Source of the DNA: a virus
Lineage: Duplodnaviria; Heunggongvirae; Uroviricota; Caudoviricetes
Reading direction: 5' to 3' (one strand)
DNA length: 64,000 nucleotides
Virus record (IMG/VR): IMGVR_UViG_3300047554_000527
Location: 8,387 to 72,386 of that record
Shown: in pieces, positions 867-27,541 of the stretch
Layout of the letters: every line of letters starts with the position of its first letter
How positions within the stretch are numbered: the first letter of the stretch is position 1
Program-made: the position numbers and the translations under genes
Notes under the pieces: model-generated
The model's input: the letters and a program-made list of their open reading frames with translations, nothing else
The model's database searches: none
What the model was told of the DNA's origin: nothing

Positions 867-867
867 A

Positions 868-4799: not shown

Positions 4800-4807
4800 G
4801 GACATAT

Positions 4808-5452: not shown

Positions 5453-5455
5453 CAT

Positions 5456-13418: not shown

Positions 13419-14138
13419 ATGTTAGAAATTTTATTATACACACTCGTCGTCACACAGATTACTATTGCATCTGTCACATTGTATCTGCACCGTGGTCAAG
13501 CACACAGGGCAGTAACATTCCATCCTGTAGTAGATCATTTCTTTAGATTATGGCTATGGCTTACAACAGGCATGAATACCAAGGAGTGGGTTGCTATCCA
13601 CCGTAAGCATCACCAAGGTAGCGACACTCCTGAAGATCCGCATAGTCCTAAAGTATATGGACTATGGAGAGTACTATTCGGTGGAGCCTTTCTATATGTT
13701 AAGGCATCTAAGAATAGAGAGATGATTGAGAAGTTAGGAGTAGGTACTCCTGACGATTGGGTAGAACGCAAAATATATACAGCGCATCCTTGGTTAGGTA
13801 TCCTAACAATGCTGATCGTAGATCTTGTTCTTTTCGGGGCTGTGGGTATAGTTGTATGGGGCGTTCAAATGATATGGATCCCGTTCTGGGCTGCAGGAGT
13901 AATTAACGGCCTAGCACATTCTGTAGGATATAGAAATCATGAAGTACCTGATACTAGCCGTAATTTGTTGCCTATTGCTATTTGGATTGGCGGTGAAGAA
14001 CTCCATAACAACCACCATGGAAAAGGTTCAGCAGCGAAATTTAGTCATAGATGGTTTGAGTTTGACATTGGGTGGTTCTACATCAAAACCTTAAGCGCTA
14101 TTGGGCTTGCAAAGGTTAGACCATCGAGCGCCGTTTAA
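13419..14138 (+). CDS. membrane fatty-acid (acyl-lipid/acyl-CoA) desaturase
   Basis: histidine boxes HRKHH and HNNHH, multiple TM segments. Confidence 0.7.
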   Translation: MLEILLYTLVVTQITIASVTLYLHRGQAHRAVTFHPVVDHFFRLWLWLTTGMNTKEWVAIHRKHHQGSDTPEDPHSPKVYGLWRVLFGGAFLYVKASKNREMIEKLGVGTPDDWVERKIYTAHPWLGILTMLIVDLVLFGAVGIVVWGVQMIWIPFWAAGVINGLAHSVGYRNHEVPDTSRNLLPIAIWIGGEELHNNHHGKGSAAKFSHRWFEFDIGWFYIKTLSAIGLAKVRPSSAV

Positions 14139-14238
14139 ACTAACGGCGTTCATCCACTTATCAACTTCGCTATCACCTGCTAACATATAAGGCAGGTAGT
14201 ACCAATATAGGAATAATACTACGGGCCAACTAGCAGGA

Positions 14239-16299
14239 TCACTTGCTAGTCGCTCTGTAAATTCCGTCCCAATCTTTTGGTAGATCATGAGTTCTCATCT
14301 CCTCGATACGTTCTAACCACAGTTCGTAATAATGATCCATCTGACCATCAAACTCGCCCATTAGTTCTCGACACTGCTCTGCTGCCTTGTCCCACTGTTG
14401 TTTTCTATAGTAGGCTAACATTAGATCGTGTAGCTCTTTTGCCATGACATATTCTGCCATAGCTCCGGCATCTGTGTGTAACAGAGGTGTGTAGATGTTT
14501 AAGCCGATTGCCTTGCCTTTAACAGCAATACAATCTAACTCTAGACAGAAAAAGTCGTCTTTGACTTCATCATATGTTGAAGGACCGATGATTACTAATA
14601 CACCGTAACCTTTTGTCTGCCCTTCTAAACGGCTGGCAACTGATACAGGGTCACCTAATACATCGTAACCCATTTTGCCCTGTGCGCCAATGTTACCTAC
14701 TAGGATCTTACCTGTATTAACACCTGCACCCATACCTACTGGAGGTTTGCCAATGGCTTCTAATTGCTTGTTGAATTCTTCAACAGCCTTAATCATTTCA
14801 ATTGTAGTTTTAACAGCGCGGTAAGCATGACGATCGTCATCTAATGGAGCGCCGTGAATATGTAAGGATGCATCGCCGATAAACTTGATTAGGCATCCGT
14901 CGTTAGCAAATACAGGCTGAGCAATAGCAGTCATGTATTCGTTCATGATCTTAGTAAAGCCTTCTACATCTGCTCCATACTTCTCACCTAGTCCTGTAAA
15001 GTTACGCATGTCTGTCATAACTGCGGTCAGTATCTTTTCCTCACCGCCCAGCTTGATAAGATCTGGATTCTTTTGTAAGCGCTCAACTATAACTGGACTT
15101 ACATAACTTCCAAACTGTTTCTTGATCTGTTGCTTCTGTAAGAACTCACTTACAAACTTGACGCCATAGGCATGCAGAGCGACCAATACTGTGCCAGCGG
15201 TAAAGACAGTAGTGTCGAATAAGAATAAAAAGTTATTGAAAGCGTAGCGACTAGCAAGATAGCCCCCAACAGCAATAACAATTGTCGTTGCCAATCCAAC
15301 ATATACATACCTCGTTAAAAATAGTAAAATCAATCCTGCTACTAGAATAGCAATAATTTCTACACCGTCAGCGTAGTCTGGACGTTGTATAACAACATTA
15401 TTGATCATAGTTCCGACAACTGCTGCCTGTACTTCGTGTGGCCAAACTGCTCCTAGTGAAGTTGGTAAAGGGTTGCCAATACCTGCGGCTGTCGGTCCTA
15501 TGATAACAATAGCCTTTTCTAAATCTTTTGGTAACTTGCTTAAACTAAAGCTACGACTCTGCTGACTCCAGTCAATCCATACGCGACCTAGACTGTCTGT
15601 AGTAACAGGACCGTAAGCAGGAATACGCATTTTCTCTACACCGTTCTCATTCAACTTTACTTGGAAGGTCGAATCGCCGGCCGCTACGCGGAGTGTTTCC
15701 ATAGCTAGACTAGGGTATAACTTACCATCAACTGTGACAATCAAAGGTAATCGACGATTTACACCATCTACTTCGGGCAATGTGCCAGTTATGCCAACCC
15801 CTACTGCTGAATTTTCTAGTGCAGGTACGTTTGCAATAAGTCCCGGGTATTGAACAATTTGATCTAAGAACTCTGGGCCTAGTACAGCCGATCCTGGAAC
15901 ACGTGGTGTATTCTTAGTTTGTTGTGCAGGAGCACTGCCTAGAACTACTGGGAACTCTTTTAGAGTTTGACCCAGCTGACTGTCACCACCTGTACGGTCT
16001 GCTTCTGGCATGAGTACGTTAAGTACAACAAGGCCTGCGTTCCTCTGATATAGATCTCGTATAATTTCACTGTATCGTGCTCTAGGTAGTGGCCACTGTC
16101 CGTATTTGTCCAATGCTGCCTCATCAATATTTACAGTTACAATATTGTTGTAAGTTGGCTCTTTGGCAGTAATTAATGTGTCAAAATAACGTAGTCTTAC
16201 GCTTTCGACAAAAGTGGGATCTGCTACACGTATGCCCAGTACTAACGCTAAGGTCAGTAGAGCAGTCCAGGGGCTGGTTAGAACTTTTTTAAACATCAA
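14239..16299 (-). CDS. CHASE2 sensor domain-containing class III adenylate/guanylate cyclase
   Basis: N-terminal signal/TM then periplasmic domain, TM cluster, C-terminal cyclase core (...MTDMRNFTGL..., ...FIGDASL...). Confidence 0.7.
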   Translation of the reverse strand: MMFKKVLTSPWTALLTLALVLGIRVADPTFVESVRLRYFDTLITAKEPTYNNIVTVNIDEAALDKYGQWPLPRARYSEIIRDLYQRNAGLVVLNVLMPEADRTGGDSQLGQTLKEFPVVLGSAPAQQTKNTPRVPGSAVLGPEFLDQIVQYPGLIANVPALENSAVGVGITGTLPEVDGVNRRLPLIVTVDGKLYPSLAMETLRVAAGDSTFQVKLNENGVEKMRIPAYGPVTTDSLGRVWIDWSQQSRSFSLSKLPKDLEKAIVIIGPTAAGIGNPLPTSLGAVWPHEVQAAVVGTMINNVVIQRPDYADGVEIIAILVAGLILLFLTRYVYVGLATTIVIAVGGYLASRYAFNNFLFLFDTTVFTAGTVLVALHAYGVKFVSEFLQKQQIKKQFGSYVSPVIVERLQKNPDLIKLGGEEKILTAVMTDMRNFTGLGEKYGADVEGFTKIMNEYMTAIAQPVFANDGCLIKFIGDASLHIHGAPLDDDRHAYRAVKTTIEMIKAVEEFNKQLEAIGKPPVGMGAGVNTGKILVGNIGAQGKMGYDVLGDPVSVASRLEGQTKGYGVLVIIGPSTYDEVKDDFFCLELDCIAVKGKAIGLNIYTPLLHTDAGAMAEYVMAKELHDLMLAYYRKQQWDKAAEQCRELMGEFDGQMDHYYELWLERIEEMRTHDLPKDWDGIYRATSK

Positions 16300-16303
16300 C
16301 TAT

Positions 16304-18316
16304 TTATTGACGTATAACGGTGTTACATCCTGCCGGATTAGTGCAACTTTGTATAAGAGTAAAGCTCTTTCCGCCTGATTGTTCTACATCAACAGTAGCG
16401 GCTCCGCCTGCATTTGTAACGTCTATTCTTGCGTTATTTCCGCCTGAACCGTATTGATTTACCAGTACATTATGCCCGTTACCTGTCATTCTTACATCTA
16501 AATAGTGCTGTCCAGCGCCGGACTGTGTAGTAGTTAAAGTGTTGTTATCACCATTTACAGTGCTGAATAATAGTCTATTGTTATTGTTGCTCTGCGTGTG
16601 ATTGACGATATTGTTATTACCACTAATTGTTGTTTCTGTGTAGTTGGTTCCGATAGTGTTAGTCTGGCTAGATGTTAGGCTGTTGTTATATCCATTTACA
16701 TCTGCTTTGATATAGTTCGATCCTACTTGTGTGATACCAATAGTATTTGTGCCAGCACCGTCGAGAGTTAGCTCTGTACGATTTTTACTGCCAGATAAGT
16801 TGATATTAACTGTGTTATTATCTCCACCTATTTGTGTAACATGTACAGCATTGTTATATGTTTGTGCTGTATTGGCCCAAGTTGAGATTCTAGAATTTTG
16901 AGCAGTCCTATCGTTGTTGTTAGTAAATGATGTGCCGCTTTGTAGTGTTTGATTGCTAGGAGAGCCCGACTGTGTAATAGTTCCGCCTTGAATAGTAGGA
17001 GCTGCTGCCGCCTGTACTGGATCAACTGGAGTAGTAGTTCCGCCTGTCGCTGAACTTGTTGTTGAATTATTAGCATCGTAGTAATATGTAATTTCACTGA
17101 TCTGCATACTGTCGCAGTCTAATCCACAGCCTGTTCCTGCTTTTGTACTAGGAAAGAAAATATAGTAATAAACGTAAGCAGAAGAATTAGTAACGTTAAT
17201 CATACTGCTAGTTGTTAAACGACTATCAGTTAATGATAGGTTACCTTCTTGTATTAGTACCCAATTTACACCATCGTTACTACCATATAACTTATAGCTT
17301 GTGGGATCTCGCCCACTAAAATCGTTAGCGGTAGTAATAGTAAAACCATTGACTACTCGACCTGTGTTTAGTTTAACAGTAACACCTGCATTTAATTTGT
17401 CAAAGTTTAAGTACTTAGTGTTTGGATTATTGTCGAACGCATTGGCAGCACCTTCACCTGCCGGACTGTTATTACTCGTTGGCCATATGTTAGTAATTTT
17501 AACTGTGGAGTTATCAAAATATATAGGTGTAGGTTGAGGAGTTGGAGTTCCAGCAGTAGCGCCTGTACCAGCATTAGTTACGGTCATTGTGTTGTTATAT
17601 CCGCCAGCCTGGCCGCTAGTTGTTCCACCTGTCGCACTTGGACCTCCACCGTTGGCGTTAGCAACTAAGCCAACTGTGCTAGAACCTGGCACACCATCAC
17701 TATTAACAATACAGGCATTTGATCCTCCCCAAGCACCTTGGCAAGCACCAAATCCTGGACTACTTGTCCAACCTTGTGCTGTTATGCCGTTGTAAGGTCC
17801 AAACTCTGGGTTGTATGTTAAGTTGCCTCCCCCGTTTAGTGTAAAGGTAGGAGCACGATACCAAGGACCATAATCCCCTGCCCAATAACTTCCATCAATG
17901 CCGTACATGCTAACTTTAGCATAAGCAACCTGTGATGCTTGTGCTGAAGTTAATGTTGAACTAACAGTAAGTGTTGTCCAGGGCACACTTGTATCAATAC
18001 ACGGATTACCGCAAATAGCATTTGGGTTTGGTAAGTTAGCACTATGGGCAGTTGCTACTTGAGTTATTAATCCTCCACTGCTGTTGTAGAATTCTATCTT
18101 AACGTTGGCTGTATCACTTTGGCCGGCACGGCCGCCACCGTTGTGTGCCAGGACACTAAAGGTAAATGTACCTCCAGCCTGCATAGCAGAATTAAAAACT
18201 ACATGCTGACTAATTGTTGTAGTAACATACGCAGTGGCAATAGCATTATAACCTGTCTGAGCTTGCGAACTAAAACAGAGTGCTAGTAGAAAAAGTTGTA
18301 GTAAATATTTTATCAT
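16304..18316 (-). CDS. secreted protein with F5/8 type C (discoidin) domain and C-terminal curlin (CsgA-like) repeats
   Basis: signal peptide MIKYLLQLFLLALCFSSQA; discoidin-like NAFDNNPNTKYLNF...YKLYGSNDGVNW; repeats VNQYGSGGNNARIDVTNAGGAATVDVEQSG matching curlin Q-x-G-x-G-N-x-A pattern. Confidence 0.6.
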   Translation of the reverse strand: MIKYLLQLFLLALCFSSQAQTGYNAIATAYVTTTISQHVVFNSAMQAGGTFTFSVLAHNGGGRAGQSDTANVKIEFYNSSGGLITQVATAHSANLPNPNAICGNPCIDTSVPWTTLTVSSTLTSAQASQVAYAKVSMYGIDGSYWAGDYGPWYRAPTFTLNGGGNLTYNPEFGPYNGITAQGWTSSPGFGACQGAWGGSNACIVNSDGVPGSSTVGLVANANGGGPSATGGTTSGQAGGYNNTMTVTNAGTGATAGTPTPQPTPIYFDNSTVKITNIWPTSNNSPAGEGAANAFDNNPNTKYLNFDKLNAGVTVKLNTGRVVNGFTITTANDFSGRDPTSYKLYGSNDGVNWVLIQEGNLSLTDSRLTTSSMINVTNSSAYVYYYIFFPSTKAGTGCGLDCDSMQISEITYYYDANNSTTSSATGGTTTPVDPVQAAAAPTIQGGTITQSGSPSNQTLQSGTSFTNNNDRTAQNSRISTWANTAQTYNNAVHVTQIGGDNNTVNINLSGSKNRTELTLDGAGTNTIGITQVGSNYIKADVNGYNNSLTSSQTNTIGTNYTETTISGNNNIVNHTQSNNNNRLLFSTVNGDNNTLTTTQSGAGQHYLDVRMTGNGHNVLVNQYGSGGNNARIDVTNAGGAATVDVEQSGGKSFTLIQSCTNPAGCNTVIRQ

Positions 18317-19428
18317 CTCTGTACAATAGTAATAATTGTATTACCGCCCGAATTAACTCTGTTCTTAAATTCAATACTACCCTGAATCTGTGTTATTACA
18401 CTGTTTTGTGTAAGAGGAGTTGTGACACATTGTAAGTCACTACCGTTATCTCTACAAAGACCTACTTGACCTTCGTCTTTGGTTACAACTATTCCGCTGG
18501 ATCTACGCCAGTCGGGCAATACACTATCTACATCATCTTTTAGATAATCTTCATCTAATCCATTTCCAATAATGTCAAACAAACTGTCTAAGAAATGATT
18601 GTCTAAAAAGTTACGAGTTAGTCTATCTTGAAAGAATTGTGCGTTCTGTTGATCTAGTTTGTTTTCTAATCCTTGCTCTCTTAAGAAATCGACATCTAAT
18701 ACATTAACTGTCGAAGCTGAATCTTTTTTGCTTGCTTGTTTTAATTCTAGGGGTGGGCTAAGAATTAAAAGATTGCTCATAGCATCTTCACTTAGATTTA
18801 AAATTATTGGTCTAGTAGGTTGAGCACTTCTGCTATTAACCTTAGTTGCTTGGAAAGGTTGATTAAGAATAACTTGCCCAACGTCAGTTTCAACAATAAT
18901 AGTGCCAGTAATACAGTTAGCTTCTATATCACGTTTAGATCTAGTAGGACGGTCGTTGGGACAACTAGGTAATAGTACAACTGTGCTAGCACCTACTTCA
19001 TCTACTGTGGCTGTAAAATCTGTACCACGAACACTGATAGTAGCAGTAGGAGTATTAACAGCTACGTTTTGCGGCGAGTTTTTAGCAATTTGGCCGCTGG
19101 CGTACCTAACAGTGCCCAGTGCCACCTTAACGCCCAACTTACCAGCCTTACTTTTAGGATCATATACAAAGTCATCAATTACTAGTCTTGAGTTTTCATT
19201 AACCTGTACTCGAGTCTGATCCTCGAAGGTTATTCCAACTTTGCCCGCCGCTGTCTTTACTGAATCGTTCATCTCGACTCCTGTGCCCTTGTTGGCCGTT
19301 AGCGTCGAGTTCTTGCGCTGTATGCTGGGAGGTGTGTTCAGCAACTCGGTCACTGTTCCTATATTGGCATGACTGCTCAATGAGAAACTCGTCAATAAGC
19401 CTAATAAGATTAAGCGACATAGTGTCAT
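18313..19428 (-). CDS. secreted protein of unknown function within curli-like operon
   Basis: signal peptide MTLCRLILLGLLTSFSLSSHA; 371 aa; 4-nt overlap with flanking genes. Confidence 0.4.
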   Translation of the reverse strand: MTLCRLILLGLLTSFSLSSHANIGTVTELLNTPPSIQRKNSTLTANKGTGVEMNDSVKTAAGKVGITFEDQTRVQVNENSRLVIDDFVYDPKSKAGKLGVKVALGTVRYASGQIAKNSPQNVAVNTPTATISVRGTDFTATVDEVGASTVVLLPSCPNDRPTRSKRDIEANCITGTIIVETDVGQVILNQPFQATKVNSRSAQPTRPIILNLSEDAMSNLLILSPPLELKQASKKDSASTVNVLDVDFLREQGLENKLDQQNAQFFQDRLTRNFLDNHFLDSLFDIIGNGLDEDYLKDDVDSVLPDWRRSSGIVVTKDEGQVGLCRDNGSDLQCVTTPLTQNSVITQIQGSIEFKNRVNSGGNTIITIVQR

Positions 19429-19436
19429 TTCACACC

Positions 19437-20219
19437 TTAATTACCAGTGATAATAGTGTATGTATTTCCGCTACCTGCTATAGCAAGATTAACAGTAGTA
19501 TCAATAGTACCACTTTGTGTGATAGTTGTGCTATTGCTAGAACCGGTAATGTTCAATGTAGCATTATGTCCATTGACTCCGCCTCCACTTTGAGTGATGC
19601 TGGTTACGTTAGTTGCTCCATTAGAAGTTAAATTAACTGTGCCTTTTGCACCAGTTAAGTTAAGAGTAGTAGAGTTTCCACCACCACCTGTTTGGTTAAG
19701 AATAACACTAATTTGATCAGCATTAAGAGTTGCTACAACACTGTTGTTAGCGCCACCTGCTGTATCGACTACAAAACTACTGTTAGAACCTAACATGTTT
19801 AAGTTAGCGATAGCACCATCGCCTGTTTGTTCAATATTAACAGTGTTGCTATTAGCTGTACCAGTTTCGGCATTGTTCATGTTGATTGTACCTACAGCAT
19901 TGTTACCTGTAACTTTATAGATTACACTAGTATCAACACCGCCGCTGGCTGTGGCTGTAACAACACCTAAGTTTAAAATGTTGCCGCTACCTATTTGTTC
20001 TACAGTTAATGTAACGTTATCACCTTTAATTTTAGACGGTGTGGTGTTACCTGTACCGGAACCTTGTATTCCTCGAATACGGTTTGATGCACCATCTTGT
20101 GTCATTGTAATAACACCATTGTCGCCTGCTTGATCGACGTAGATGGTATTGTCTGCCGCAAAAGATGACGCAGCAAACAATATCGCTATAACTGCCATAA
20201 CTTTATTCAGCTTCTTCAT
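19437..20219 (-). CDS. secreted curlin-repeat protein (CsgA/CsgB-like amyloid subunit candidate)
   Basis: signal peptide MKKLNKVMAVIAILFAASSFA (start 20219); repeated ITQSGGGVNGHNATLNITGSSNSTTITQSG units; Gly/Asn/Thr/Gln-rich. Confidence 0.55.
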   Translation of the reverse strand: MKKLNKVMAVIAILFAASSFAADNTIYVDQAGDNGVITMTQDGASNRIRGIQGSGTGNTTPSKIKGDNVTLTVEQIGSGNILNLGVVTATASGGVDTSVIYKVTGNNAVGTINMNNAETGTANSNTVNIEQTGDGAIANLNMLGSNSSFVVDTAGGANNSVVATLNADQISVILNQTGGGGNSTTLNLTGAKGTVNLTSNGATNVTSITQSGGGVNGHNATLNITGSSNSTTITQSGTIDTTVNLAIAGSGNTYTIITGN

Positions 20220-20281
20220 ATATACTACCAGTTCTTTTGGAACTGTCTCCTTGTTGGGGGAATTATGTATCATTCCCCGTT

Positions 20282-21193
20282 TTATTTGGTCCTAATTTCT
20301 TTGCTTCCTTCAGCATTTTTTCCGTTGCCGGACTGTTCCGTTGGGGGAGTTGCTTCTGCGGCTCCTTTACTCTCGGTCGTCTTTTGAACCAGCTCATTTT
20401 TATCTCCTTTGTAGTTCCAAAGCCCTTTACGAGCTCCATCTTTAATTAGCTCAACTACTCCGGCTTCGATTGCGGCCTTGACAGCATAAGTGCCCGGCTC
20501 GTTAATCGTTAAACCTGCTTCACCCTCAAACGCTTTAGTTCCCATATCAAAAAACTTCAATGCTGTTACCGCATCAGCACTACTGATGATTGTTTTTTGT
20601 ACGGTTACTGATGTAAGAACTTTACCAGTATTCACGCTAACTGCTCGCAAACTGATAGTAACTACATCCTGACTCCACTGTGTCTGTTTGCCTATTCCAA
20701 AAACTCTGGCTCCGATGCCACCGCTTTTAATAGAGCTATCATACCCAATAATACCGCCTTCTATAATAATCCCTGCAAACTGCATGGGCATTAAAGGTTT
20801 TGCGTTGTTGCCTTCATATGCTTCGCGCATCTGACGGATAATTAATCTTTCTTTAGTTAAGTTGTCAATACCTACACGCTCAACAACATCAAACCAACGA
20901 CCGCCACCTACATCTTGTAGGGCTTTAATCAAGAAGCTTTCCGCCCCTTGTGTTACTGCTGTACTTAAACTAGCAATGTTAGCCTGAGGGCGACGTTGTC
21001 CTGTTAGATCTCTAAAACTATAAACTGCTACACTTACTGGCCTTTCTGCTGCCGGTAATGGAACGGTATCAAATTCTTTCTGCATTACGCTAGAAGGAAT
21101 TGTTGGCATCTCTTCAAGAAGCCCATCTTGCTGTGTTATTGCACAGCCTGTTAATAAACTTGTGATTGCTAGAGTTAATAGTGTCTTTTTCAT
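20282..21193 (-). CDS. csgG: curli production assembly/transport lipoprotein CsgG
   Basis: lipobox LLTGC; extended colinear similarity to E. coli CsgG (...VAVY.F.D.TGQ..., ...A.VMVEGSIIGY.SNVKSGGVGARYFGIG..., ...NEPV..C.M.AIE.GV..LI.DG...GLW). Confidence 0.8.
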   Translation of the reverse strand: MKKTLLTLAITSLLTGCAITQQDGLLEEMPTIPSSVMQKEFDTVPLPAAERPVSVAVYSFRDLTGQRRPQANIASLSTAVTQGAESFLIKALQDVGGGRWFDVVERVGIDNLTKERLIIRQMREAYEGNNAKPLMPMQFAGIIIEGGIIGYDSSIKSGGIGARVFGIGKQTQWSQDVVTISLRAVSVNTGKVLTSVTVQKTIISSADAVTALKFFDMGTKAFEGEAGLTINEPGTYAVKAAIEAGVVELIKDGARKGLWNYKGDKNELVQKTTESKGAAEATPPTEQSGNGKNAEGSKEIRTK

Positions 21194-21194
21194 A

Positions 21195-21683
21195 TTATAC
21201 TCCAGGAATTACGAAACTACTTAACGGAACATCAATTTGTGTATTAATGCCCGGGCCGATAACAGTTAATCTAATCATTTCATTAAGATCAGCATCGACT
21301 ACTTTTTGCCAACTAATTCTGTTACCTTGGAAATCTATTTCACCCCTACATTGATCAACAGGAGTAGAAGTAGTACAACCATTGTTGGCAAACATAGCAG
21401 TAGCTACGTTTTGGCTGATCTGTGCGTAGATACGCGACTCTAAGTTACTGATAAACTTAGCTAAGTTAGTGTTCTTTTTGTCTGCTATTTCTTTATCGAT
21501 AGCAGCTTGAATTTTGTCTTGTAAAGCCTTTCTGCGTGTAGCTTCTTGGTTCTCAATAGTTAAGACGTGACTGCTATAGCCTGCGCCGTTAAACGCAGGG
21601 CTTTTAAACGTAAAATCGTTAATTGGTGCAGCCGTTGCTGTTAGTGTTGCAGACAAGGCCAGACCGAGAAATATTAATCGCAT
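21195..21683 (-). CDS. CsgF-like curli assembly protein
   Basis: signal peptide; mature N-terminus INDFTFKSPAFNGAGY resembles CsgF TMTFQFRNPNFGGNP; immediately upstream of csgG. Confidence 0.45.
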   Translation of the reverse strand: MRLIFLGLALSATLTATAAPINDFTFKSPAFNGAGYSSHVLTIENQEATRRKALQDKIQAAIDKEIADKKNTNLAKFISNLESRIYAQISQNVATAMFANNGCTTSTPVDQCRGEIDFQGNRISWQKVVDADLNEMIRLTVIGPGINTQIDVPLSSFVIPGV

Positions 21684-21762
21684 CCTAAATCCCCAGTGTA
21701 GTGTAATTGTATTTACAATTACCTGAGAATTGATTTTGTATGCAGTTAAAGTTTAATCTAGA

Positions 21763-22800
21763 TTAAACAGTTGGAGAAATACCTGTTTGTGGTGCAGGTG
21801 TAGTTCCCATAGGACCTTTAGGAGGAACAGGCGCACCTATTTTAGGTTTTGACACATCTAATGCAGGCTTCATAGGTTGTGCCTTTGCAGGCTTTGGTAA
21901 AGGATTCCACGGACGACCTGTGCTAGGATACGAAGAAATACGTGCTCCTGCTATACCAAAGTTTCCTCTATCTGCAGAGAATCTAACTATTAACACAGGA
22001 TCATATCCGTTTGCAGGAATATCTCCATTGTGCCAGGTATGTGCTCCAGTTAGAACAAAAGAACCTCTAGTACCTTTTTTAAGTGTAGGGTGTCCCTGCA
22101 ACACTAAATCTACATTACTACGACCAGGAGCACCGCCAAAGTCTTTTCCAAAAACAGTGAGAGCTTTTAATTTAGGATTCTTGATAGGAACCCCATATGT
22201 TGGACCTCTCGGAAATTGATCTCCGAATGCTGCCTTAATGCCTTTGACAAATGCCGATACTTCTGGATCTGAGGCAAGATGATCAACTCCGCCCCAATGA
22301 CCGAATCCTTTAGGTGTTGTGCCATCTTTTAAACTTATCCAAGCTACCGGGGTGCCTTGATCATCTACTATTTCTACGTCTGCTTTAACGTTTCCTGGAA
22401 CCTTAACAGCACCAGCGGCATTAACTACGCGAGTACCTATAGCTACTTTAATAAACGGTTGCCCGTTAAGATGCTCTTTAATAGTAGTATCGAGAGCAAG
22501 AATTTGCCCTTCTTCTTTTTCTAATCTTCCGCCTTGAGCTTCTGCGGGTTTTACCAAAACTGTAGCACCGTCGAAATGAATTACTTTACCATCAGCGGAG
22601 ACAGTAGATCCCGGTAAAGTTCTAGCAATATTTTGAACGCTGTCGAAACGATTTGCCGAAGGAACAACTACTTTAACTGTTGTACCTGTTTTCTTTTCAA
22701 CATCAAACCCCATGGGTTTAATATAGGAAATTAGTTCATCTGCTGATGTTTTTTCTGAAATAATTTCGATAGTTTCGTATAAAAAGTCACGTGCTCGCAT
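21763..22800 (-). CDS. hypothetical protein with Pro-rich C-terminal tail
   Basis: 345 aa; C-terminus PKPAKAQPMKPALDVSKPKIGAPVPPKGPMGTTPAPQ. Confidence 0.35.
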   Translation of the reverse strand: MRARDFLYETIEIISEKTSADELISYIKPMGFDVEKKTGTTVKVVVPSANRFDSVQNIARTLPGSTVSADGKVIHFDGATVLVKPAEAQGGRLEKEEGQILALDTTIKEHLNGQPFIKVAIGTRVVNAAGAVKVPGNVKADVEIVDDQGTPVAWISLKDGTTPKGFGHWGGVDHLASDPEVSAFVKGIKAAFGDQFPRGPTYGVPIKNPKLKALTVFGKDFGGAPGRSNVDLVLQGHPTLKKGTRGSFVLTGAHTWHNGDIPANGYDPVLIVRFSADRGNFGIAGARISSYPSTGRPWNPLPKPAKAQPMKPALDVSKPKIGAPVPPKGPMGTTPAPQTGISPTV

Positions 22801-22806
22801 AATAAG

Positions 22807-23475
22807 TTATTTACCTATTTCTGGGAACAGCACTTCATCAACGAAATCACGGATAACAGGTTCAGGAACACCCATGGCAATCATGCTACGATAAACATGT
22901 GGGTTTTTCTTTTGATTAATGCAGTAGAAATTTTGACGATCTTTAGAATTGGCAGTGCCCTTGCGATTGACGTTGCTAATATAGTATTCTAGGGTTTTTA
23001 AACCTAGGCTAACAAATTGATCAATTTCACTAGATTCTGTAAGATTGCCGGCAGCTACCATACTAGGGCTAAAGATGTTACTAGCCCACTCAGGCAGCTC
23101 ACGCTTTTTGTTCCACGTGATATCTTTAACTTCGTTAGCAAACCAATCATGCATTGTGTGTTGATTACTAACTAGGCTGAAGTCGTGGAATGCACCTGTG
23201 ATCTTGTTTTTACCGCAGACAGTATCGAACCCCCAAATAGGCGTATCGTCATCAGCATGTGGAAATACTGTAGCGTGTAGAATATAAATTCCGTGGCTTT
23301 CAGTTTTATCTACAATCTCAATGTGTGCTCTACGATAAGTTTCTGCATAATAGACATGATTTTCCCATGTGTATTTTGCATCGTGTTCTGGATTTCTGTG
23401 TAGTGTGCCAGTACGTGCAAATATCTTTTGTATTTCATCTGCACATGCTCGCATCTTTTCCCATACATGACTCAT
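22807..23475 (-). CDS. ferredoxin-dependent bilin reductase (FDBR family; PebB/PebS/PcyX-like), copy 2
   Basis: 222 aa, paralog of upstream FDBR (shared W.NKV...YRR.HI..VD......HC.VFPH......PI.GFD.V.GKNKITGAFHDFS...); ATGA overlap. Confidence 0.65.
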   Translation of the reverse strand: MSHVWEKMRACADEIQKIFARTGTLHRNPEHDAKYTWENHVYYAETYRRAHIEIVDKTESHGIYILHATVFPHADDDTPIWGFDTVCGKNKITGAFHDFSLVSNQHTMHDWFANEVKDITWNKKRELPEWASNIFSPSMVAAGNLTESSEIDQFVSLGLKTLEYYISNVNRKGTANSKDRQNFYCINQKKNPHVYRSMIAMGVPEPVIRDFVDEVLFPEIGK

Positions 23476-24155
23476 TGCGTTTCTCCTATCTTAGGAAAAA
23501 GACACTGCTGTATGAATACCTGCACATCTTCAGGATTAAGCCCTAACGCTGTCATAACCTTGGGAGTGTGCGGATTTAGTCTTTGATTGTCGCAGTAATA
23601 GTCTTGTGCGGACTGTGTATCTACTGCTGTATTGTTTGATAGGCCTACATTATCTAGGTAGTATCTAAGATCGTTAATAGCTGTTAGATACAGTTGATTT
23701 ATTTCTTCAGGATCTTGTACGTTGCCTGCAGAAATCATACTAGGTGTAAAGATACGTTCCGCCCAGTCTGGTAAGCGTCTAACTTTATTCCATTCTAGTT
23801 TTTGTGCAGAATCTGCAAACCAGTCGAGCATGAAGTGTTCGGGATCACCTGCAGGACTAAAGTCATGGAATGCACCTGTAATTTTATTTTTTCCTGCTAC
23901 TACATCAAAACCGAATATAGGTGCAGGATTGTGAGTATGGGGGAACACACAACAATGCATCATCCAGAGACCGCGAGTTTCCCTAGCATCAACGACGTCG
24001 ATGTGTGCTCTCCTATAAAGACTACTGGTCCAAACTTTGTTGTACCAATTGAATCTGTCTAGTCCAGGCTCTTGTATTTCTTGCCCGGTGCTGTTGAACA
24101 GCCTCTCAAATTCTTGCTGAATATCAATCAGCGTTGGCCAAACTAAGTTCGTCAT
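23472..24155 (-). CDS. ferredoxin-dependent bilin reductase (PebA-like), copy 1
   Basis: 227 aa FDBR-fold signature; immediately downstream of heme oxygenase as in cyanobacterial ho1-pebA-pebB clusters. Confidence 0.65.
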   Translation of the reverse strand: MTNLVWPTLIDIQQEFERLFNSTGQEIQEPGLDRFNWYNKVWTSSLYRRAHIDVVDARETRGLWMMHCCVFPHTHNPAPIFGFDVVAGKNKITGAFHDFSPAGDPEHFMLDWFADSAQKLEWNKVRRLPDWAERIFTPSMISAGNVQDPEEINQLYLTAINDLRYYLDNVGLSNNTAVDTQSAQDYYCDNQRLNPHTPKVMTALGLNPEDVQVFIQQCLFPKIGETQ

Positions 24156-24672
24156 TGTAGCTGTTCATAATTTTAATTGCCCAGTCAAAGGCCACGTTTG
24201 CTTCTTCTGCCATGCTGTCGTCTAGCATAGCACGAATTTTTTCTTTAAGGCCTTCGACATCATTAAAATCTAAGTTACGATGAGGAGCATTAATTACTTT
24301 TCTAATCATTTGACCGCCGAACAAGTCTCCCATGTGCCATGTGTAAAGATGTGCGGTAATCTTTGCTGGTTGTCCTACAAGGTCTAGGATATAACGACTG
24401 TAGGCAATAGTCTCAGGACGAAGTCTAGGATAGACCCCGTTATTCATCTCTTTAGCATCAAGGTACAGTTTTAATGCTCGTTCGATTTCTAACATGTCTG
24501 TTGTAAGTCCGGCATCTCTTGCAACAGTTTCGATACTGGCATAGAAGTTAGACTTTTGATAGGTATAGTCTGCCCAAACTTCAATTGGCATGTTTCTTTT
24601 AAACACTGCCTTCATGAATTTAGTTTCTTCTGCGGCTGTATGACTGTCTTTGGTTAGCTCTTTTAAACTCAT
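24124..24672 (-). CDS. heme oxygenase
   Basis: 182 aa; HO-like N-terminal LKE.T...H...E...FMK motif and overall length. Confidence 0.6.
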   Translation of the reverse strand: MSLKELTKDSHTAAEETKFMKAVFKRNMPIEVWADYTYQKSNFYASIETVARDAGLTTDMLEIERALKLYLDAKEMNNGVYPRLRPETIAYSRYILDLVGQPAKITAHLYTWHMGDLFGGQMIRKVINAPHRNLDFNDVEGLKEKIRAMLDDSMAEEANVAFDWAIKIMNSYNDELSLANAD

Positions 24673-25887
24673 TTATTCCTCGTAGCGTTTTAGCACAATG
24701 CAAGCGGAACGCCCGCTAAATGCAAAGTTATTCTTTATAGCGTACTTAGCATTGATAGCAGATGCTTCTGTAGGAATTGACATACCCGAATCGATAGGAG
24801 TTTTTAGATTGATAGTAGGCGGCGTTGTTTGTGTTTTTAAAGCCATTAGCGTATAGATAGTTTCAATAATGCCGCTAGCCGCTAATGTGTGTCCTATCTG
24901 CGCTTTATTCGCTACCATAGTTTTTTCAGGAAACAATTCTCGCATAGCATAGAATTCTATATCATCTCCTGCCTGAGTCCCTGTTGCATGAGCGTTAATA
25001 TATCCGATGTCGGATGTTGTAATTCCTGCAGACTTTAATGCTCTAGCAACTGAGGTTTTGGCAGCAATTCCATCTTTATCAGGACTGGTGTCGTGATGTC
25101 CTGCGCTAGCAACTCCTGATCCTACGATTAACCCATATATTTTTGCACCCCTAGCTTTTGCTTTTTCTAAAGGCTCAATAACTAAACAGCCTGCGCCCTC
25201 TCCTGCATTAAATCCTGCTCGATTTTGGTCAAAGGGTGTTGCAGGTTCGTTGCTCAGTGCTCCGAGATTTTGAAAATAATAACATTGATATGCTTCAATC
25301 GGCATATCTGCGCCACCGACTACAACTGCATCAATATCTGGCTCTGTTTCTAAAGTTCTTAACGCATAATCTATACTTAGAAGTCCGGTAGAACAGGCAG
25401 CGTTAATACCAGTAGATAATCCATTAAACTCAAACATTCGAGAAATAGTACCGCTAAGGTAATCTAATGTTGATTGAATTACCTGTCTAGGTAATATTCT
25501 TTCTCGGCCGTCTTCTAATGCTCGTGTAAGGTACCCTCTACTTACTGTATTTCCGCCTGTAGTGCTATAAACAACTGAAACATTTTTACTTTCGATGCCG
25601 CTATCTTTAACAGCATCTTCTACAGATCGTATTCCTAATTTAATGCAAGGATCCCAATGCTGGGCGATTCCACCATAGGCCATTTCTTCATAGATAGGAA
25701 TAGGTGCCGGAGCACCTATTTTTACTGTAAGACTTTTATGTGTTTTCGGAAACTTTTTAGGATTGTCTTCTGGCCAGGAAATTTCTTTAATAGCAGTTTG
25801 TCCTGCTAGTAAATTTGTCCAATTTTCTGCTAGTGTTTCGCCTAAGCCATTTATAATACCAATACCTGTTACTGCGTATTGTTTCAT
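24673..25887 (-). CDS. beta-ketoacyl-ACP synthase (FabF/FabB-type KAS)
   Basis: active-site Cys (INAACSTGL), His-His pair (NAHATGT, QIGHTLAASG), 404 aa. Confidence 0.7.
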   Translation of the reverse strand: MKQYAVTGIGIINGLGETLAENWTNLLAGQTAIKEISWPEDNPKKFPKTHKSLTVKIGAPAPIPIYEEMAYGGIAQHWDPCIKLGIRSVEDAVKDSGIESKNVSVVYSTTGGNTVSRGYLTRALEDGRERILPRQVIQSTLDYLSGTISRMFEFNGLSTGINAACSTGLLSIDYALRTLETEPDIDAVVVGGADMPIEAYQCYYFQNLGALSNEPATPFDQNRAGFNAGEGAGCLVIEPLEKAKARGAKIYGLIVGSGVASAGHHDTSPDKDGIAAKTSVARALKSAGITTSDIGYINAHATGTQAGDDIEFYAMRELFPEKTMVANKAQIGHTLAASGIIETIYTLMALKTQTTPPTINLKTPIDSGMSIPTEASAINAKYAIKNNFAFSGRSACIVLKRYEE

Positions 25888-26192
25888 TCTTCCTCTACTC
25901 TGATAACCAAAGGATATCCGTTTTGTCGGGCTAACATAGTTCCTTCGACGCCTTTTTGTTCGGCAATTTCGTGCGGATAAATTCCTGCAATGCCTGCACC
26001 TTCATTATGAACCTGCATAGTGACTGTTTTTGCACTGGCTTCATTATGTTTAAAAACGTGCATTAGTAGAGCAATGACAAAATCCATAGGAGTGTGGTCG
26101 TCATTCTGTAGGACAACTTTATAAAGTCCGGGGCTTAAGATATCAAAATCATTTTCAGTTTCGACGATATCTTTAGTTTTAGTTTCTGCCAT
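25884..26192 (-). CDS. clpS: ATP-dependent Clp protease adaptor ClpS
   Basis: YKVVLQNDDHTPMDFVIALLMHVF... matches ClpS core. Confidence 0.7.
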   Translation of the reverse strand: MAETKTKDIVETENDFDILSPGLYKVVLQNDDHTPMDFVIALLMHVFKHNEASAKTVTMQVHNEGAGIAGIYPHEIAEQKGVEGTMLARQNGYPLVIRVEEE

Positions 26193-26246
26193 CTTAAACT
26201 CTTTTCTGTGTATGGTGTAAATTGGGGGATTGCTCCCCCAATGCTT

Positions 26247-26672
26247 TTACTTGATGGCAATCATGCGAGGCTTGAGTGCTTCAGGTACTTCACGTGTTAG
26301 TTTAACACGAAGAATACCGTTTGTCAATTCTGCATCGCCCACGATGATATAATCAGCAAGTGTAAAGCTACGCTCAAAATCTCGAGCAGCTAGACCACGA
26401 TGTAGATACTTGCTAGCATCTTCATCTTTTAGACGCTGTCCTCGGATAGTGAGTTGGTTTTGATCAACTTCAATAGTGATATCCTCGCGATCAAACCCTG
26501 CAACAGCGATTTCAACTTCAAAAGTGTTGTCGTCGTGTTTTAGGACATTGTATGGTGGATAGTTGTGTTGAGCGGAGTTTGCAAAGCGTCTTTCAGCATC
26601 TGTGAAAATACGATCAAATCCGATAAGAGCTCTGTTTAGAGCAGAAGTGTCAAAACGAGTAATTGCGTTCAT
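26247..26672 (-). CDS. small heat-shock protein Hsp20 (IbpA-like)
   Basis: alpha-crystallin domain; start ATG 26672 after AGGAGA SD giving MNAITRFDTSALNRALIGFDRIF (IbpA-like N-terminus). Confidence 0.65.
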   Translation of the reverse strand: MNAITRFDTSALNRALIGFDRIFTDAERRFANSAQHNYPPYNVLKHDDNTFEVEIAVAGFDREDITIEVDQNQLTIRGQRLKDEDASKYLHRGLAARDFERSFTLADYIIVGDAELTNGILRVKLTREVPEALKPRMIAIK

Positions 26673-26752
26673 AGTTTTTCTCCTTAATAAGCAAGAACGT
26701 TTGGGCATTGTGCCCGATTTGTAAGACCCATTATGGCGTCCTACAAATTTAT

Positions 26753-27541
26753 TTATGCCGGCAAATTTGAAATTTCTTCCAAACTTGGAGCATAATTTCC
26801 TCGGTGCTGTACAGAAATACTAGCAGCCTTGTTAGCAAATAGTATAGCATCTTCTATGCTTTTTGTCTGTAGATACTGGTAGGCTAAAGATGCCAGAAAC
26901 GTATCCCCGCATCCACATACATCCATAACTTCTACTGCCCTTGTTGAAAACAGTGTTTCGGTATGAACTGTTTTTAGCATAGCTCCTCGATCGCCTAGTG
27001 TAACAATCAAGTTCCTTGGAATGCTGTATCTATTTTTGTATTCAGTTTCGTTGATTTTTATATAAGCATTATCGGCACTGAATCTCGATAAGTCTCGTTT
27101 CTTTGTGTCAATAAACACAGGACAGTTGGCAGACCTAATAACATGCTCAATATGCTCATAGGTTAGAAAACCTTTATCGTAATCAGAAATAACTACAGCA
27201 TCGAACGGTCCTGCAGGGATCTTTCCACTCCAGGGTGTTAGACTGTGTTCGTTATCGACTCGCAATAAGTGTTGCCCCGACTTTTTATCAATGAAGCGAG
27301 TTTTAGTTATAGTTTCGTAGTTAGTTATAAAATCAGGATCGATGCCTAAAGCAGTAAAGTTTCTGAATACATTCTCGGACATGCCGGGCAAGGACATTGT
27401 TTCAACTACCTTAATAACAGGTACAGGTGCTTCCGGGCTAAGTCTATCAACTGTGCCTATTTTATATTCGTCAATACAACTATCACCTATCAGCAATACG
27501 TTGAATGATGTTTGTTGTTGAATAGTCCCCGACTCGTTCAT
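26753..27541 (-). CDS. PfkB-family carbohydrate kinase (RfaE domain I-like D-glycero-beta-D-manno-heptose-7-phosphate kinase)
   Basis: N-terminal VLLIGDSCIDEY, C-terminal DVCGCGDTFLASLA (PfkB GAGD-like motif). Confidence 0.6.
   Translation of the reverse strand: MNESGTIQQQTSFNVLLIGDSCIDEYKIGTVDRLSPEAPVPVIKVVETMSLPGMSENVFRNFTALGIDPDFITNYETITKTRFIDKKSGQHLLRVDNEHSLTPWSGKIPAGPFDAVVISDYDKGFLTYEHIEHVIRSANCPVFIDTKKRDLSRFSADNAYIKINETEYKNRYSIPRNLIVTLGDRGAMLKTVHTETLFSTRAVEVMDVCGCGDTFLASLAYQYLQTKSIEDAILFANKAASISVQHRGNYAPSLEEISNLPA

Follow-up and report, generated by a model that had tools for sequence, protein, structure and literature searches.

Gene content of the operon

Six tightly packed genes occupy positions 14239-21683 on the minus strand of the window, the 64-kb stretch of viral DNA that was analysed. 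In order, they encode a CsgF-like protein, CsgG, a first curlin subunit, a FecR-domain protein, a second curlin subunit and a CHASE2 adenylate/guanylate cyclase (Table 1). The junctions of the first five genes are, in order, a 1-nt gap, gaps of 8 nt and 8 nt, and a 4-nt overlap; the cyclase gene starts 7 nt after the stop of curlin subunit 2. Signal peptides are present in all five non-cyclase proteins. An initial annotation had recognized a five-gene operon; the five open reading frames stand, and the cyclase gene had been overlooked. The same annotation had named misassembly as a possible refutation. Identical CsgG with the same flanking genes on both sides was found in contigs of five different sequencing runs, so the arrangement is no assembly artefact. 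About 80 viral contigs of IMG/VR keep this gene order too, with a CsgG that is 49-80% identical to that of the window. With gaps of 1-8 nt or overlaps, an order kept across phages and purifying selection on one head region (see below), the six genes form one selected unit. An HMM search that covered the larger ORFs detected no CsgE, CsgC or CsgD in the module; CsgE and CsgC are small proteins.

Table 1. Features of the operon, in window coordinates
Feature	Position	Strand	Length or remark
CsgF-like protein	21195-21683	minus	162 aa
CsgG	20282-21193	minus	303 aa
Curlin subunit 1, ORF	19437-20273	minus	278 aa
Curlin subunit 1, preferred start	19437-20219	minus	260 aa from Met19
FecR-domain protein	18313-19428	minus	371 aa
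Curlin subunit 2	16304-18316	minus	670 aa
Subunit 2, signal peptide	18260-18316	minus	MIKYLLQLFLLALCFSSQA, followed by Q; read from translation
Subunit 2, N-terminal head	17537-18259	minus	no known family; beta-sandwich and Gly/Ser/Asn-rich segment
Subunit 2, F5/8 type C (discoidin / CBM32-like) domain	17072-17536	minus	residues ~261-415
Subunit 2, C-terminal putative polymerisation domain	16304-16852	minus	residues 489-670
CHASE2 adenylate/guanylate cyclase	14239-16296	minus	685 aa from ATG at 16296

CsgG is matched by the Pfam CsgG profile with E = 6.1e-50 (169.9 bits, cut-off 20.8) and by the NCBIfam CsgG model with 2.4e-55, below the equivalog cut-off. Against the E. coli CsgG structures 3x2r and 4uv3 (E = 5e-52), residues 5-263 are colinear with residues 4-256 of 277. 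The protein carries an LLTGC lipobox and ends in a low-complexity tail of about 40 aa. In line with the initial annotation, which had named the lipobox and colinear matches across most of the protein, it is an outer-membrane lipoprotein that is homologous along its entire length to the curli channel of E. coli. It has a constriction loop with a one-residue insertion, and Y51, N55 and F56 of E. coli align with Q, S and L.

CsgF caps the CsgG channel on its extracellular side and serves as its nucleation factor, and in E. coli its N-terminal segment plugs into the CsgG barrel. The CsgF-like protein matches Pfam CsgF (E = 4e-7, 30.7 bits, cut-off 25.8), in agreement with its earlier identification, and PHROG 35372 (6e-45). 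Its signal peptide, MRLIFLGLALSATLTATA, is followed by AP, and the mature N-terminus NDFTFKSPAFNGAGYSSHVLTIENQE is almost invariant across 79 phage orthologues. When a profile of 30 orthologues was compared with the PDB, E. coli CsgF was the top match (E = 0.025), with an alignment limited to the N-terminal FxFxxPxFxG segment. By this comparison, the phage protein retains the channel-plugging segment known from E. coli.

The 278-aa ORF of curlin subunit 1 most likely starts at Met19, as this start yields the predicted signal peptide MKKLNKVMAVIAILFAASSFA, followed by AD, and most homologues have 259-262 aa. The Sec signal peptide is followed by some ten strand-turn-strand repeats, in all of which Q-x-G-x-x-N is invariant. 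The C-terminal domain of curlin subunit 2 consists of about eight curlin repeats with a conserved Cys658/Cys664 pair. AF2 models of both subunits are stable monomeric solenoids with pLDDT of 85-90. The Pfam check suggested earlier gave a negative result, as neither repeat protein of the window reached Curlin_rpt (PF07012) at E ≤ 0.1, and Foldseek returned only weak generic beta-helix matches. The closest solved relative is Pontibacter CsgA (PDB 8c50). The curlin identity of both proteins rests on profile, structural and orthologue evidence, and sequence and structure comparison shows a curlin beta-solenoid fold in each of these Sec-exported proteins. The initial claim of two secreted curlin-type proteins is upheld, and both repeat strings that it quoted are present.

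The discoidin fusion proposed for curlin subunit 2 was confirmed by Pfam F5_F8_type_C (5.5e-10, 39.9 bits, cut-off 28.2). The head that precedes this domain has no match in Pfam or PHROG. It comprises a beta-sandwich (residues ~20-190, pLDDT 80-94 in the AF2 model) and a Gly/Ser/Asn-rich segment (residues 191-260, with pLDDT below 50 at 191-257). Nothing else in the module is as conserved as this head: its amino-acid identity to orthologues is 76-96%, while their CsgG is just 54-75% identical, and one of its segments is about 95% conserved. The same codon is used at only about 55% of the identical residues. The head region is under strong purifying selection. Homologues of the head were found solely as curlin fusions or fragments. 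Across loci, the protein in the fifth slot is between 139 and 852 aa long and joins a common curlin end to an F5/8C, PA14 or other head. The fifth gene probably encodes a modular adhesin with exchangeable heads on a curlin polymerisation domain, an architecture that is not described in the published accounts of the viral curli module that were consulted.

The FecR-domain protein, the cyclase and the carrier phage

The 371-aa protein, initially listed as of unknown function, belongs to a known family, as it contains a FecR domain (Pfam 1.4e-11). Its match to PHROG 37870 (2e-127) covers residues 12-370, which supports the long start. With its signal peptide MTLCRLILLGLLTSFSLSSHA, followed by N, the protein is predicted to be secreted or periplasmic; neither an anti-sigma part nor a transmembrane part was found in it. 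It contains an invariant LLPSC...C motif and ends in a curlin-like strand, GGNTIITIVQR; the FecR-domain alignment took in the orthologues of Melnitz, HTVC008M and loci L008 and L010.

The cyclase matches Pfam CHASE2 (3.6e-37), Guanylate_cyc (2.1e-15) and PHROG 35576 (8.5e-201), and holds the same position in Melnitz, HTVC008M and most of the 80 IMG/VR loci. The metal Asp residues, Lys, Asp and Arg of its site are present, and the transition-state Asn is replaced by Ser, which is true of 39 phage loci. The activity and product of the cyclase are uncertain because this canonical Asn is absent. Among 68 bacterial loci that encode a related FecR protein, 20-21 have a CHASE2 cyclase gene no more than 4 kb away; CsgG and CsgF were found in none of the 68. 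The pairing of FecR with a CHASE2 cyclase has been published for the S. meliloti cyaD1 locus, SMc02177 (PMC5498481), and FecR with CHASE2 for a Burkholderia biofilm-regulating operon (PMC5192318). By homology, the two phage genes correspond to this recurrent bacterial signalling pair, here joined to a curli core, a combination that is not described in the published accounts of the viral module that were consulted.

The carrier had been called a T4-like phage, which the window does not show. The sole T4-type marker in the window is rIIA (PHROG, 1.9e-128), with jumbo phage PA5oct as its best cultured match (32% identity), and the T4 late-promoter motif is not enriched in the window. T4-type replication and baseplate genes, which flank the module in pelagimyophages, are absent around it here; its neighbours are genes for heme oxygenase, bilin reductase, FabF, ClpS and HSP20. 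There are 18 tRNA genes in the window and 46 in a longer public contig, and relatives are found on contigs of 229-370 kb. The rIIA gene, the tRNA array and the size of the relatives point to a jumbo phage lineage. The carrier is a very large aquatic phage, probably jumbo, with a genomic context unlike that of pelagiphages. The window also contains NAMPT and NadR-like genes and is rich in metabolic genes.

Function of the module

With moderate confidence, the operon is regarded as a complete module for type VIII (curli-type) secretion and fibre assembly, of the pelagiphage kind but borne by a different, very large phage. The host Sec and Lol machinery would place the CsgG channel in the outer membrane during infection. 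Both curlin subunits would cross it unfolded and polymerise to amyloid-like fibres on the infected cell. The curlin domain of the 670-aa subunit would enter the fibre and its exchangeable glycan-binding heads would be displayed, which may make the infected cell adhere to particles, to polysaccharide or to its neighbours. As a periplasmic-sensor/receptor-cyclase pair, rather than as iron regulators, the FecR-domain protein and the CHASE2 cyclase would couple an envelope or surface signal to cAMP within the infected cell. The phage might benefit by capturing new hosts, by keeping out competing phages or by being retained on particles. Several observations speak against fibre assembly. No clumping of Melnitz-infected cells was seen by Buchholz et al. 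(PMC9004378), the repeat proteins miss Curlin_rpt and have weak Foldseek matches, the CsgG constriction residues are unlike those of E. coli, and CsgE, CsgC and CsgD were undetected among the larger ORFs of the module. A 400-residue head with conserved Cys pairs must also cross a channel about 1 nm wide, for which it would need an unfolded state or short disulphide loops. Against the signalling part stands the missing transition-state Asn.

An unlikely reading that retains some weight is that CsgG exports the repeat proteins as monomeric or short beta-solenoid adhesins or as a surface coat, without long amyloid fibres. Either would alter the properties of the host surface or keep competing phages from their receptors. 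The lack of clumping, the stable monomeric solenoids of the models and the lectin heads, which are typical of adhesins, agree with it, and both subunits (~8-10 repeats) are far longer than E. coli CsgA. However, Pontibacter CsgA is likewise a long multi-repeat protein from a study of curli fibres, the Q-x-G-x-x-N ladders that define curlin stacking are invariant here, and CsgF, the fibre nucleation and anchoring factor of E. coli, is retained.

It is decidedly improbable that CsgG and CsgF, the best-conserved recognisable parts of the module, form a functional core that times lysis as a pinholin- or secretin-like gated pore, the repeat proteins being accessory or vestigial. From what is established about type VIII secretion and lysis, CsgG is an outer-membrane channel and holins act at the inner membrane, which opening of this channel alone would not depolarise. 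Both curlin genes, FecR and the cyclase are kept in order across the ~80 diverged contigs, and the strongest purifying selection of the module is on the subunit 2 head, unlike vestigial cargo. The lysis pore was proposed for Melnitz on the basis of structure models and because no clumping was seen, and csgA and csgB were stated to be lacking (PMC9004378), but curlin-fold subunits are clearly present.

Use of the channel as an ungated import/export pore for small molecules (cofactors, siderophores, nutrients), as suggested in PMC7029224 and PMC9599517, is very improbable. It fits the absence of a detected CsgE gate from the module and the presence of a 'FecR' gene, but leaves two conserved curlin-fold subunits with lectin heads and the retention of CsgF unexplained; moreover, this FecR protein has a signal peptide without anti-sigma or transmembrane part, and the partners of its bacterial relatives are CHASE2 sensors instead of TonB-dependent iron transporters. 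Finally, a bacterial origin of the region, as a host curli locus or through chimeric assembly, is extremely improbable. Every module gene has bacterial homologues, metabolic genes abound and close relatives occur in MAG bins that carry the labels of various bacterial phyla (loci L093-L103), but those matches are short contigs assigned to six phyla without relation to one another, a pattern that fits mis-binned phage DNA, the five sequencing runs agree in arrangement and flanks, rIIA, the NAMPT and NadR-like genes and the tRNA array share the window, the module recurs in the 80 viral contigs and two cultured phages, and the 68 genuine bacterial FecR loci are without CsgG and CsgF.

Comparison with known systems

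The initial annotation had known of no curli modules among phage auxiliary genes. Pelagiphage curli genes were reportedly annotated by Zhao in 2013, and the annotations of Pelagibacter phage HTVC008M and Methylophilales phage Melnitz show an identical order (CsgF, CsgG, curlin repeat protein, FecR, second curlin repeat protein, adenylate cyclase). The viral type VIII secretion system has been discussed by Zaragoza-Solas 2020 (PMC7029224), Buchholz 2022 (PMC9004378) and Wittmers 2022 (PMC9599517). It is widespread in the ocean, at all 65 GOV2 stations (PMC7029224, PMC9004378, PMC9599517), and expressed in marine metatranscriptomes (PMC9599517). The roles suggested in the initial annotation (fibres that decorate the infected cell, a remodelled matrix, a pore) parallel hypotheses already in print. 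The present operon is a further example of the published six-gene set, with some unreported features. Its proteins are 34-46% identical to those of the pelagiphage modules, which likewise show no CsgE, CsgC or CsgD and consist of secreted or membrane proteins throughout. The second curlin subunit has 670 aa here, with a head of no known family and F5/8C, versus 341 aa in Melnitz and 441 aa in HTVC008M, and the cyclase is of the Asn-to-Ser subtype, unlike the pelagiphage version. The HTVC023P-type podovirus module has an upstream histidine kinase, which this module does not.

In the S. meliloti and Burkholderia pairs, as here, the gene of a secreted FecR-domain protein lies next to that of a CHASE2 membrane sensor; the outputs of those bacterial systems have ties to exopolysaccharide and biofilm. 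In pairs of Alphaproteobacteria and Myxococcota, the sensor shares the CHASE2 and class III cyclase architecture of the phage protein, whereas the Burkholderia 'BiofilmReg' operon combines LysM-FecR with a CHASE2 histidine kinase. The bacterial pairs are not linked to CsgG/CsgF, whereas the phage FecR gene sits between two curlin genes and its product has a distinct C-terminal half, including the curlin-like terminal strand.

Pontibacter korlensis CsgA, from Bacteroidota, is a long multi-repeat curli subunit without lectin or head domains. With E. coli and Salmonella curli, the phage module shares a CsgG homologous end to end, the N-terminal motif of CsgF and the strand-turn-strand solenoid of E. 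coli curlin with its Gln/Asn/Gly ladders. It differs in having 8-10 repeats per subunit instead of 5, an N-terminal extension of 470 residues with a lectin domain in one subunit, and Q/S/L instead of Y/N/F at the CsgG constriction. A CsgD regulator, CsgE gate and CsgC chaperone were also not detected among its larger ORFs. The curli genes of E. coli and Salmonella form two divergent operons, csgBAC and csgDEFG, and are encoded by the bacterium, whereas those described here form a single operon encoded by a virus.

Operon layout and outer-membrane channel

Six closely packed genes on the minus strand form a curli-type operon (type VIII secretion system, T8SS). They encode, from the upstream end, a CsgF-like protein, the CsgG lipoprotein, curlin subunit 1, a FecR-domain protein, curlin subunit 2 and a CHASE2 cyclase. 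The successive junctions measure 1, 8, 8, -4 and 7 nt, and a convergent fatty-acid desaturase gene abuts the operon end. The five ORFs of the initial annotation are all present, together with the motifs quoted from them. The proposed operon of five genes is real and incomplete, as the cyclase gene was overlooked, and the 371-aa protein then regarded as being of unknown function contains a FecR domain. All module proteins but the cyclase have an N-terminal signal peptide. Met19 (position 20219) is almost certainly the start of subunit 1 in its 278-aa ORF, since the protein then has a canonical signal peptide and falls in the 259-262 aa range of most homologues.

Positions of the features in the window (nt)
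Feature	Position	Strand	Remark
tRNA genes	24-2408	-	18 genes, window start
Sugar-nucleotide gene cluster	3990-9602	+	
Curli-type module	14239-21683	-	six genes
CHASE2 cyclase	14239-16296	-	685 aa
Curlin subunit 2	16304-18316	-	670 aa
Subunit 2, residues 191-260	17537-17746	-	Gly/Ser/Asn-rich
FecR-domain protein	18313-19428	-	371 aa
Curlin subunit 1	19437-20273	-	278-aa ORF
CsgG lipoprotein	20282-21193	-	303 aa
CsgF-like protein	21195-21683	-	162 aa
Restriction endonuclease-like protein	21763-22800	-	345 aa
Auxiliary-gene cluster	22807-27541	-	
Ferredoxin-dependent bilin reductase	22807-23475	-	
Ferredoxin-dependent bilin reductase	23472-24155	-	
Heme oxygenase	24124-24672	-	
FabF-like ketoacyl synthase	24673-25887	-	
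rIIA	33590-35791		
Nicotinamide phosphoribosyltransferase (NAMPT)	39559-40956	-	NAD salvage pair
NadR-like adenylyltransferase/NUDIX protein	42088-43209	-	NAD salvage pair
Lone tRNA, anticodon CTA	48345-48419	-	

A promoter and terminator scan of positions 13800-23000 found no minus-strand terminator inside the module, which is consistent with a single transcription unit. Promoter-like sites were rarer than in shuffled sequence, and the scan is otherwise uninformative. No family match to CsgD, CsgE or CsgC (the latter two being small proteins) was obtained among the six module proteins and the neighbours scanned. The published viral and alphaproteobacterial modules likewise lack csgD, csgE and csgC (PMC9599517). 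The 345-aa protein encoded just upstream of csgF resembles type II restriction endonucleases (PADLOC REase_II, 3.4e-10; PHROG 13937). The protein lacks a signal peptide, and its absence from most related loci rules it out as a member of the module.

CsgG matches Pfam PF03783 with 169.9 bits (6e-50, cut-off 20.8) and is colinear with E. coli CsgG (PDB 3x2r, E = 5e-52, residues 5-263 versus 4-256), in agreement with the initial annotation. Scoring 188 bits against the NCBIfam CsgG equivalog, for which the cut-off is 505, it is classed by its sequence as a homologue and not an equivalog. The lipoprotein signal read from the translation is MKKTLLTLAITSLLTG/C; its lipobox LLTG/C, already pointed out earlier, aligns with LLSGC of E. 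coli. The constriction loop is kept, with a one-residue insertion and the replacement of E. coli Tyr51, Asn55 and Phe56 by Q, S and L, so that the chemistry of the pore would be unlike that of E. coli.

The CsgF assignment likewise stands, with 30.7 bits against Pfam PF10614 (cut-off 25.8). As a phmmer search of the PDB with the window CsgF returned spurious repeat-protein matches only, a profile of phage orthologues was required. Its top match is E. coli CsgF, still at a marginal E = 0.025, and the alignment is limited to the N-terminal FxFxxPxFxG segment. From the published CsgG-CsgF structures, we take this segment to be the part that inserts into the CsgG barrel. The N-terminus of mature CsgF is almost invariant over 79 phage orthologues, with the consensus AAP-x-D-[FY]-x-FKSP-[AS]-FNG-x-GYSSHVLTIENQE.

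Curlin subunits and the mosaic of subunit 2

Neither repeat protein of the window matches the Pfam curlin repeat (Curlin_rpt, PF07012) at E ≤ 0.1, and curlin identity was therefore tested by other routes. Subunit 1 matches the NCBIfam CsgA (5.4e-7) and CsgB (1.1e-4) models far under their equivalog cut-offs, and the solved curli subunit 8c50 by phmmer (4.5e-4). PF07012 is carried by about a third of its homologues with more than 50% identity. When a 57-sequence profile was compared with 177,635 PDB sequences, only two were retrieved at E ≤ 0.01, both of them curli subunits (8c50, 1.6e-8; E. coli CsgA 8enq, 0.0056). Within each repeat of this family the columns that do not vary are those of Q-x-G-x-x-N, and the AF2 model consists of strand-turn-strand repeats (pLDDT 85, pTM 0.82).

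Subunit 2 is not detected by the subunit 1 family HMM. Its AF2 model has a confident C-terminal solenoid (residues 489-669, pLDDT ~90). A profile built from 48 proteins encoded in the subunit 2 gene slot matches only 8c50 (4e-24) and 8enq (0.0027) in the whole PDB, and PF07012 is found in 29 of the 48 (best 5.5e-25). The predicted folds show the two-sheet strand-turn-strand β-solenoid of curlin subunits. It is concluded from profiles and models that both repeat proteins are curlin-fold subunits. The curlin repeats of the initial annotation thus hold through the family profiles, the slot proteins and the fold, and fail with PF07012 on the window proteins themselves.

After its signal peptide, subunit 2 has a β-sandwich head of unrecognised family (residues ~20-190), a Gly/Ser/Asn-rich stretch not modelled by AF2 (residues 191-260, disordered), a linker with one helix and, last, the curlin domain. 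The F5/8 type C (discoidin/CBM32) domain, the fusion of which had been noticed before, scores above its family threshold and has the expected fold. More than 120 full-length homologues, with 53-74% identity, are present in metagenomes. The gene slot is variable. Its limits could be set in 62 phage loci, in which the ORF directly following the FecR gene encodes 139-852 aa, and extra genes are sometimes inserted. Heads are shuffled: in some phages the N-terminal head is shared and the middle domain differs, in others the F5/8C and curlin parts are shared and follow another head, and one protein of the slot has a PA14 domain.

Between phages with 54-75% identity in CsgG and 31-58% in the subunit 2 curlin domains, the head of subunit 2 keeps 76-96% identity, in particular over residues 191-260. 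Residues 191-260 reach 94-96% identity in most of the phages compared, which are otherwise diverged; the exceptions are two phages with 77-87% and L013, a database locus with an unrelated segment. Only ~55% of the identical head residues share a codon. High identity despite this codon usage indicates that the head is under strong purifying selection and was not recently transferred. Residues 191-260 are the most constrained part of the module and probably mark an interaction site. As guesses, the segment could be a signal for targeting or could bind a partner that does not vary.

FecR/CHASE2-cyclase pair and proposed mechanism

The FecR gene has been termed an iron-dependent regulator (Wittmers et al., PMC9599517). 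An alignment of the FecR protein was scanned against one genome per prokaryotic species. About 11 whole-module loci were found (L093-L103), on short MAG contigs to which unrelated phyla are assigned. CsgF, CsgG, FecR and the cyclase are present in most, and two are fragments with FecR only. The bins are labelled Actinobacteria, Rhodobacteraceae, Flavobacteriaceae, Legionellales, Luteolibacter, Pirellulales and Caulobacteraceae, and these contigs are probably of phages mis-binned into bacterial genomes. The scan also yielded 68 more distant bacterial loci, mostly from Alphaproteobacteria with some assigned to Myxococcota or 'Deltaproteobacteria'. Within 8 kb, neither CsgG nor CsgF was found at any of the 68, and 20-21 have a cyclase of the same CHASE2 and class III architecture within 4 kb. 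In S. meliloti, the SMc02177 gene presumably adjoins cyaD1. Its product, a FecR-domain protein, is part of the cAMP regulon under the CHASE2 cyclases CyaD1, CyaD2 and CyaK (PMC5498481), and an operon of Burkholderia that regulates biofilm encodes a LysM-FecR protein beside a CHASE2 histidine kinase (PMC5192318). Because the pairing occurs in bacteria without CsgG or CsgF, and because such pairs are published, the phage module appears to join a curli core with a bacterial FecR/CHASE2 sensor pair. The two proteins are best read, from these gene neighbourhoods, as a sensor pair taken from bacteria and not as iron regulation, which makes a concrete biochemical hypothesis.

As read from the sequence, the cyclase starts with a membrane helix, which is followed by a periplasmic CHASE2 domain and more hydrophobic segments; its catalytic domain is cytoplasmic. 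Five of the six class III catalytic residues are kept (the two metal Asp, Lys/Asp and Arg). The transition-state Asn is replaced by Ser in the motif YDVLGDPVSVASRLE (residues 545-559). This Ser occurs in 39 phage loci, and Asn is kept in 15 phage and 20 bacterial loci; the substitution possibly changes the activity or the product. Matches of the cyclase to PADLOC PycC are weak (36 bits) and are due to the shared cyclase fold. A Pycsar system was rejected for want of an effector and because CHASE2 is the sensor. The FecR protein ends with a curlin-like strand, x-I-T-I-x-Q, also present in Melnitz, HTVC008M and two orthologues from jumbo contigs. As the subunit 1 HMM scores it at noise level, this likeness is visual only, and a true curlin repeat is not supported.

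From the gene identities, folds, synteny and selection, we infer the following mechanism, which we consider probable. The phage would place a curli-type channel in the outer membrane of its host. The two curlin subunits would be exported and would then polymerise at the cell surface, where the large subunit would display glycan-binding heads. The FecR/CHASE2-cyclase pair would tie an envelope signal to cyclic-nucleotide signalling. Swappable glycan-binding heads on a fibre subunit point to an adhesive function. Fibres, if real, would make infected cells aggregate or attach, with effects on particle formation, carbon export and phage transmission.

A more specific version is put forward tentatively. 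Subunit 2 may be a modular 'lectin-on-amyloid' adhesin, controlled or reported on by the co-opted FecR/CHASE2-cyclase sensor. Its conserved curlin domain would serve in polymerisation and carry swappable heads, namely F5/8C, PA14 and the β-sandwich of unrecognised family with its ~95%-conserved Gly-rich segment. If so, a jumbo aquatic phage lineage would reprogramme the cells that it infects for binding to specific glycans or particles. The virus would thereby drive a change from a free-living to an attached life, an idea absent from the pelagiphage publications.

Other functions have been considered. A surface adhesin or coat that is not amyloid has a modest chance of being the correct explanation. 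A pore for the timing of lysis was proposed by Buchholz et al. (2022), who stated that csgA and csgB are missing (PMC9004378). This role is unlikely here, as it leaves the conserved and selected subunits unexplained. The same objection applies to an import pore, a possibility slightly less likely still, which Wittmers et al. (2022) discussed along with aggregation and superinfection defence (PMC9599517). Export and assembly of curlin fibres bearing glycan-binding heads remains the preferred mechanism.

Carrier phage and published phage modules

There is hardly any chance that the DNA is bacterial or chimeric: the identical CsgG with the same flanks occurs in contigs of five sequencing runs, and phage-origin markers are present in the window (rIIA, NAMPT with the NadR-like gene, and a DNA methylase). 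The NAD salvage pair is known from large vibriophages. The rIIA gene matches its PHROG with 1.9e-128, and its best cultured match is in the jumbo phage PA5oct (32% identity). By megablast, window positions 14000-24000 and 30000-54000 match none of 50,697 phage records, and there is therefore no close cultured relative.

CsgG was found with 49-80% identity in 80 IMG/VR contigs. Its closest relatives lie on contigs of 193-229 kb and others on contigs of up to 266 kb. The same module is also present in more distant relatives, on contigs of 332 and 370 kb, where it adjoins genes for HSP70, HSP20, ClpS, ribosomal protein S21, heme oxygenase and bilin reductase. The tRNA genes at the window start continue in L174, a longer public contig with identical genes, in which 46 tRNAs with duplicated sets extend over ~7.7 kb (729-8419); such an array fits a very large phage.

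The phage was initially annotated as T4-like, which is unproven. Within the 64-kb window rIIA is the only T4-type gene, capsid, portal and terminase being beyond the window, and the T4 late-promoter motif TATAAATA is not enriched (1 observed, 4.6 expected). The gp32, gp59 and baseplate neighbours of the pelagimyophage type are absent beside the window module; such T4-type neighbours were found in only four of the loci compared. Exact-protein matches past the window ends gave short contigs only, with no structural genes. A jumbo lineage is more likely than a T4-like carrier. The host must have an outer membrane.

The window holds many auxiliary metabolic genes. The cluster directly upstream of the curli module encodes, besides the enzymes listed in the table, ClpS, HSP20 and a PfkB kinase, and in about half of the 80 related viral contigs heme oxygenase and bilin reductase are encoded 3-4 kb upstream of CsgF. 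A sugar-nucleotide cluster comprises genes for a glycosyltransferase, a DegT-type aminotransferase, two epimerase/dehydratases and a split transketolase, which suggests that the phage modifies surface glycans or DNA. A lone tRNA of the amber-suppressor type, called 'tRNA-Pyl' by ARAGORN, lies well away from the main tRNA array and could indicate TAG read-through or recoding in part of the phage genome.

A tblastn search with CsgG in 50,697 phage records found the Methylophilales phage Melnitz (four isolates) and the Pelagibacter phage HTVC008M, with 46-49% identity. The order and orientation of the six genes are identical in the annotations of both phages and in about 80 IMG/VR loci. The window thus has on a phage genome the arrangement CsgF-CsgG-CsgA/B-FecR-(CsgA/B)-adenylate cyclase of viral T8SS. 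A "curli operon" of pelagimyophages was described by Zaragoza-Solas et al. (2020), who proposed "sibling capture" (PMC7029224). In podo- and myo-pelagiphages, CsgA/B, FecR and the cyclase were recognised by Wittmers et al. (2022), who found the genes at 65 of 65 GOV2 stations and in metatranscriptomes (PMC9599517). The initial annotation considered such genes unfamiliar in phages; this novelty is superseded, the six-gene order being already annotated and published for Melnitz, HTVC008M and pelagiphages.

The terms discoidin, lectin, CHASE2 and jumbo are absent from the text of Wittmers et al. (2022; PMC9599517), and no literature linking curli with jumbo or huge phages was found. The window module therefore belongs to the published type, with some features unreported. 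Phage curli systems are common in aquatic viromes. With the module described here, their known carriers include, besides phages of SAR11 and OM43, a very large phage lineage that has many relatives in public metagenomes, as counted by the subunit 2 homologues and the viral contigs.
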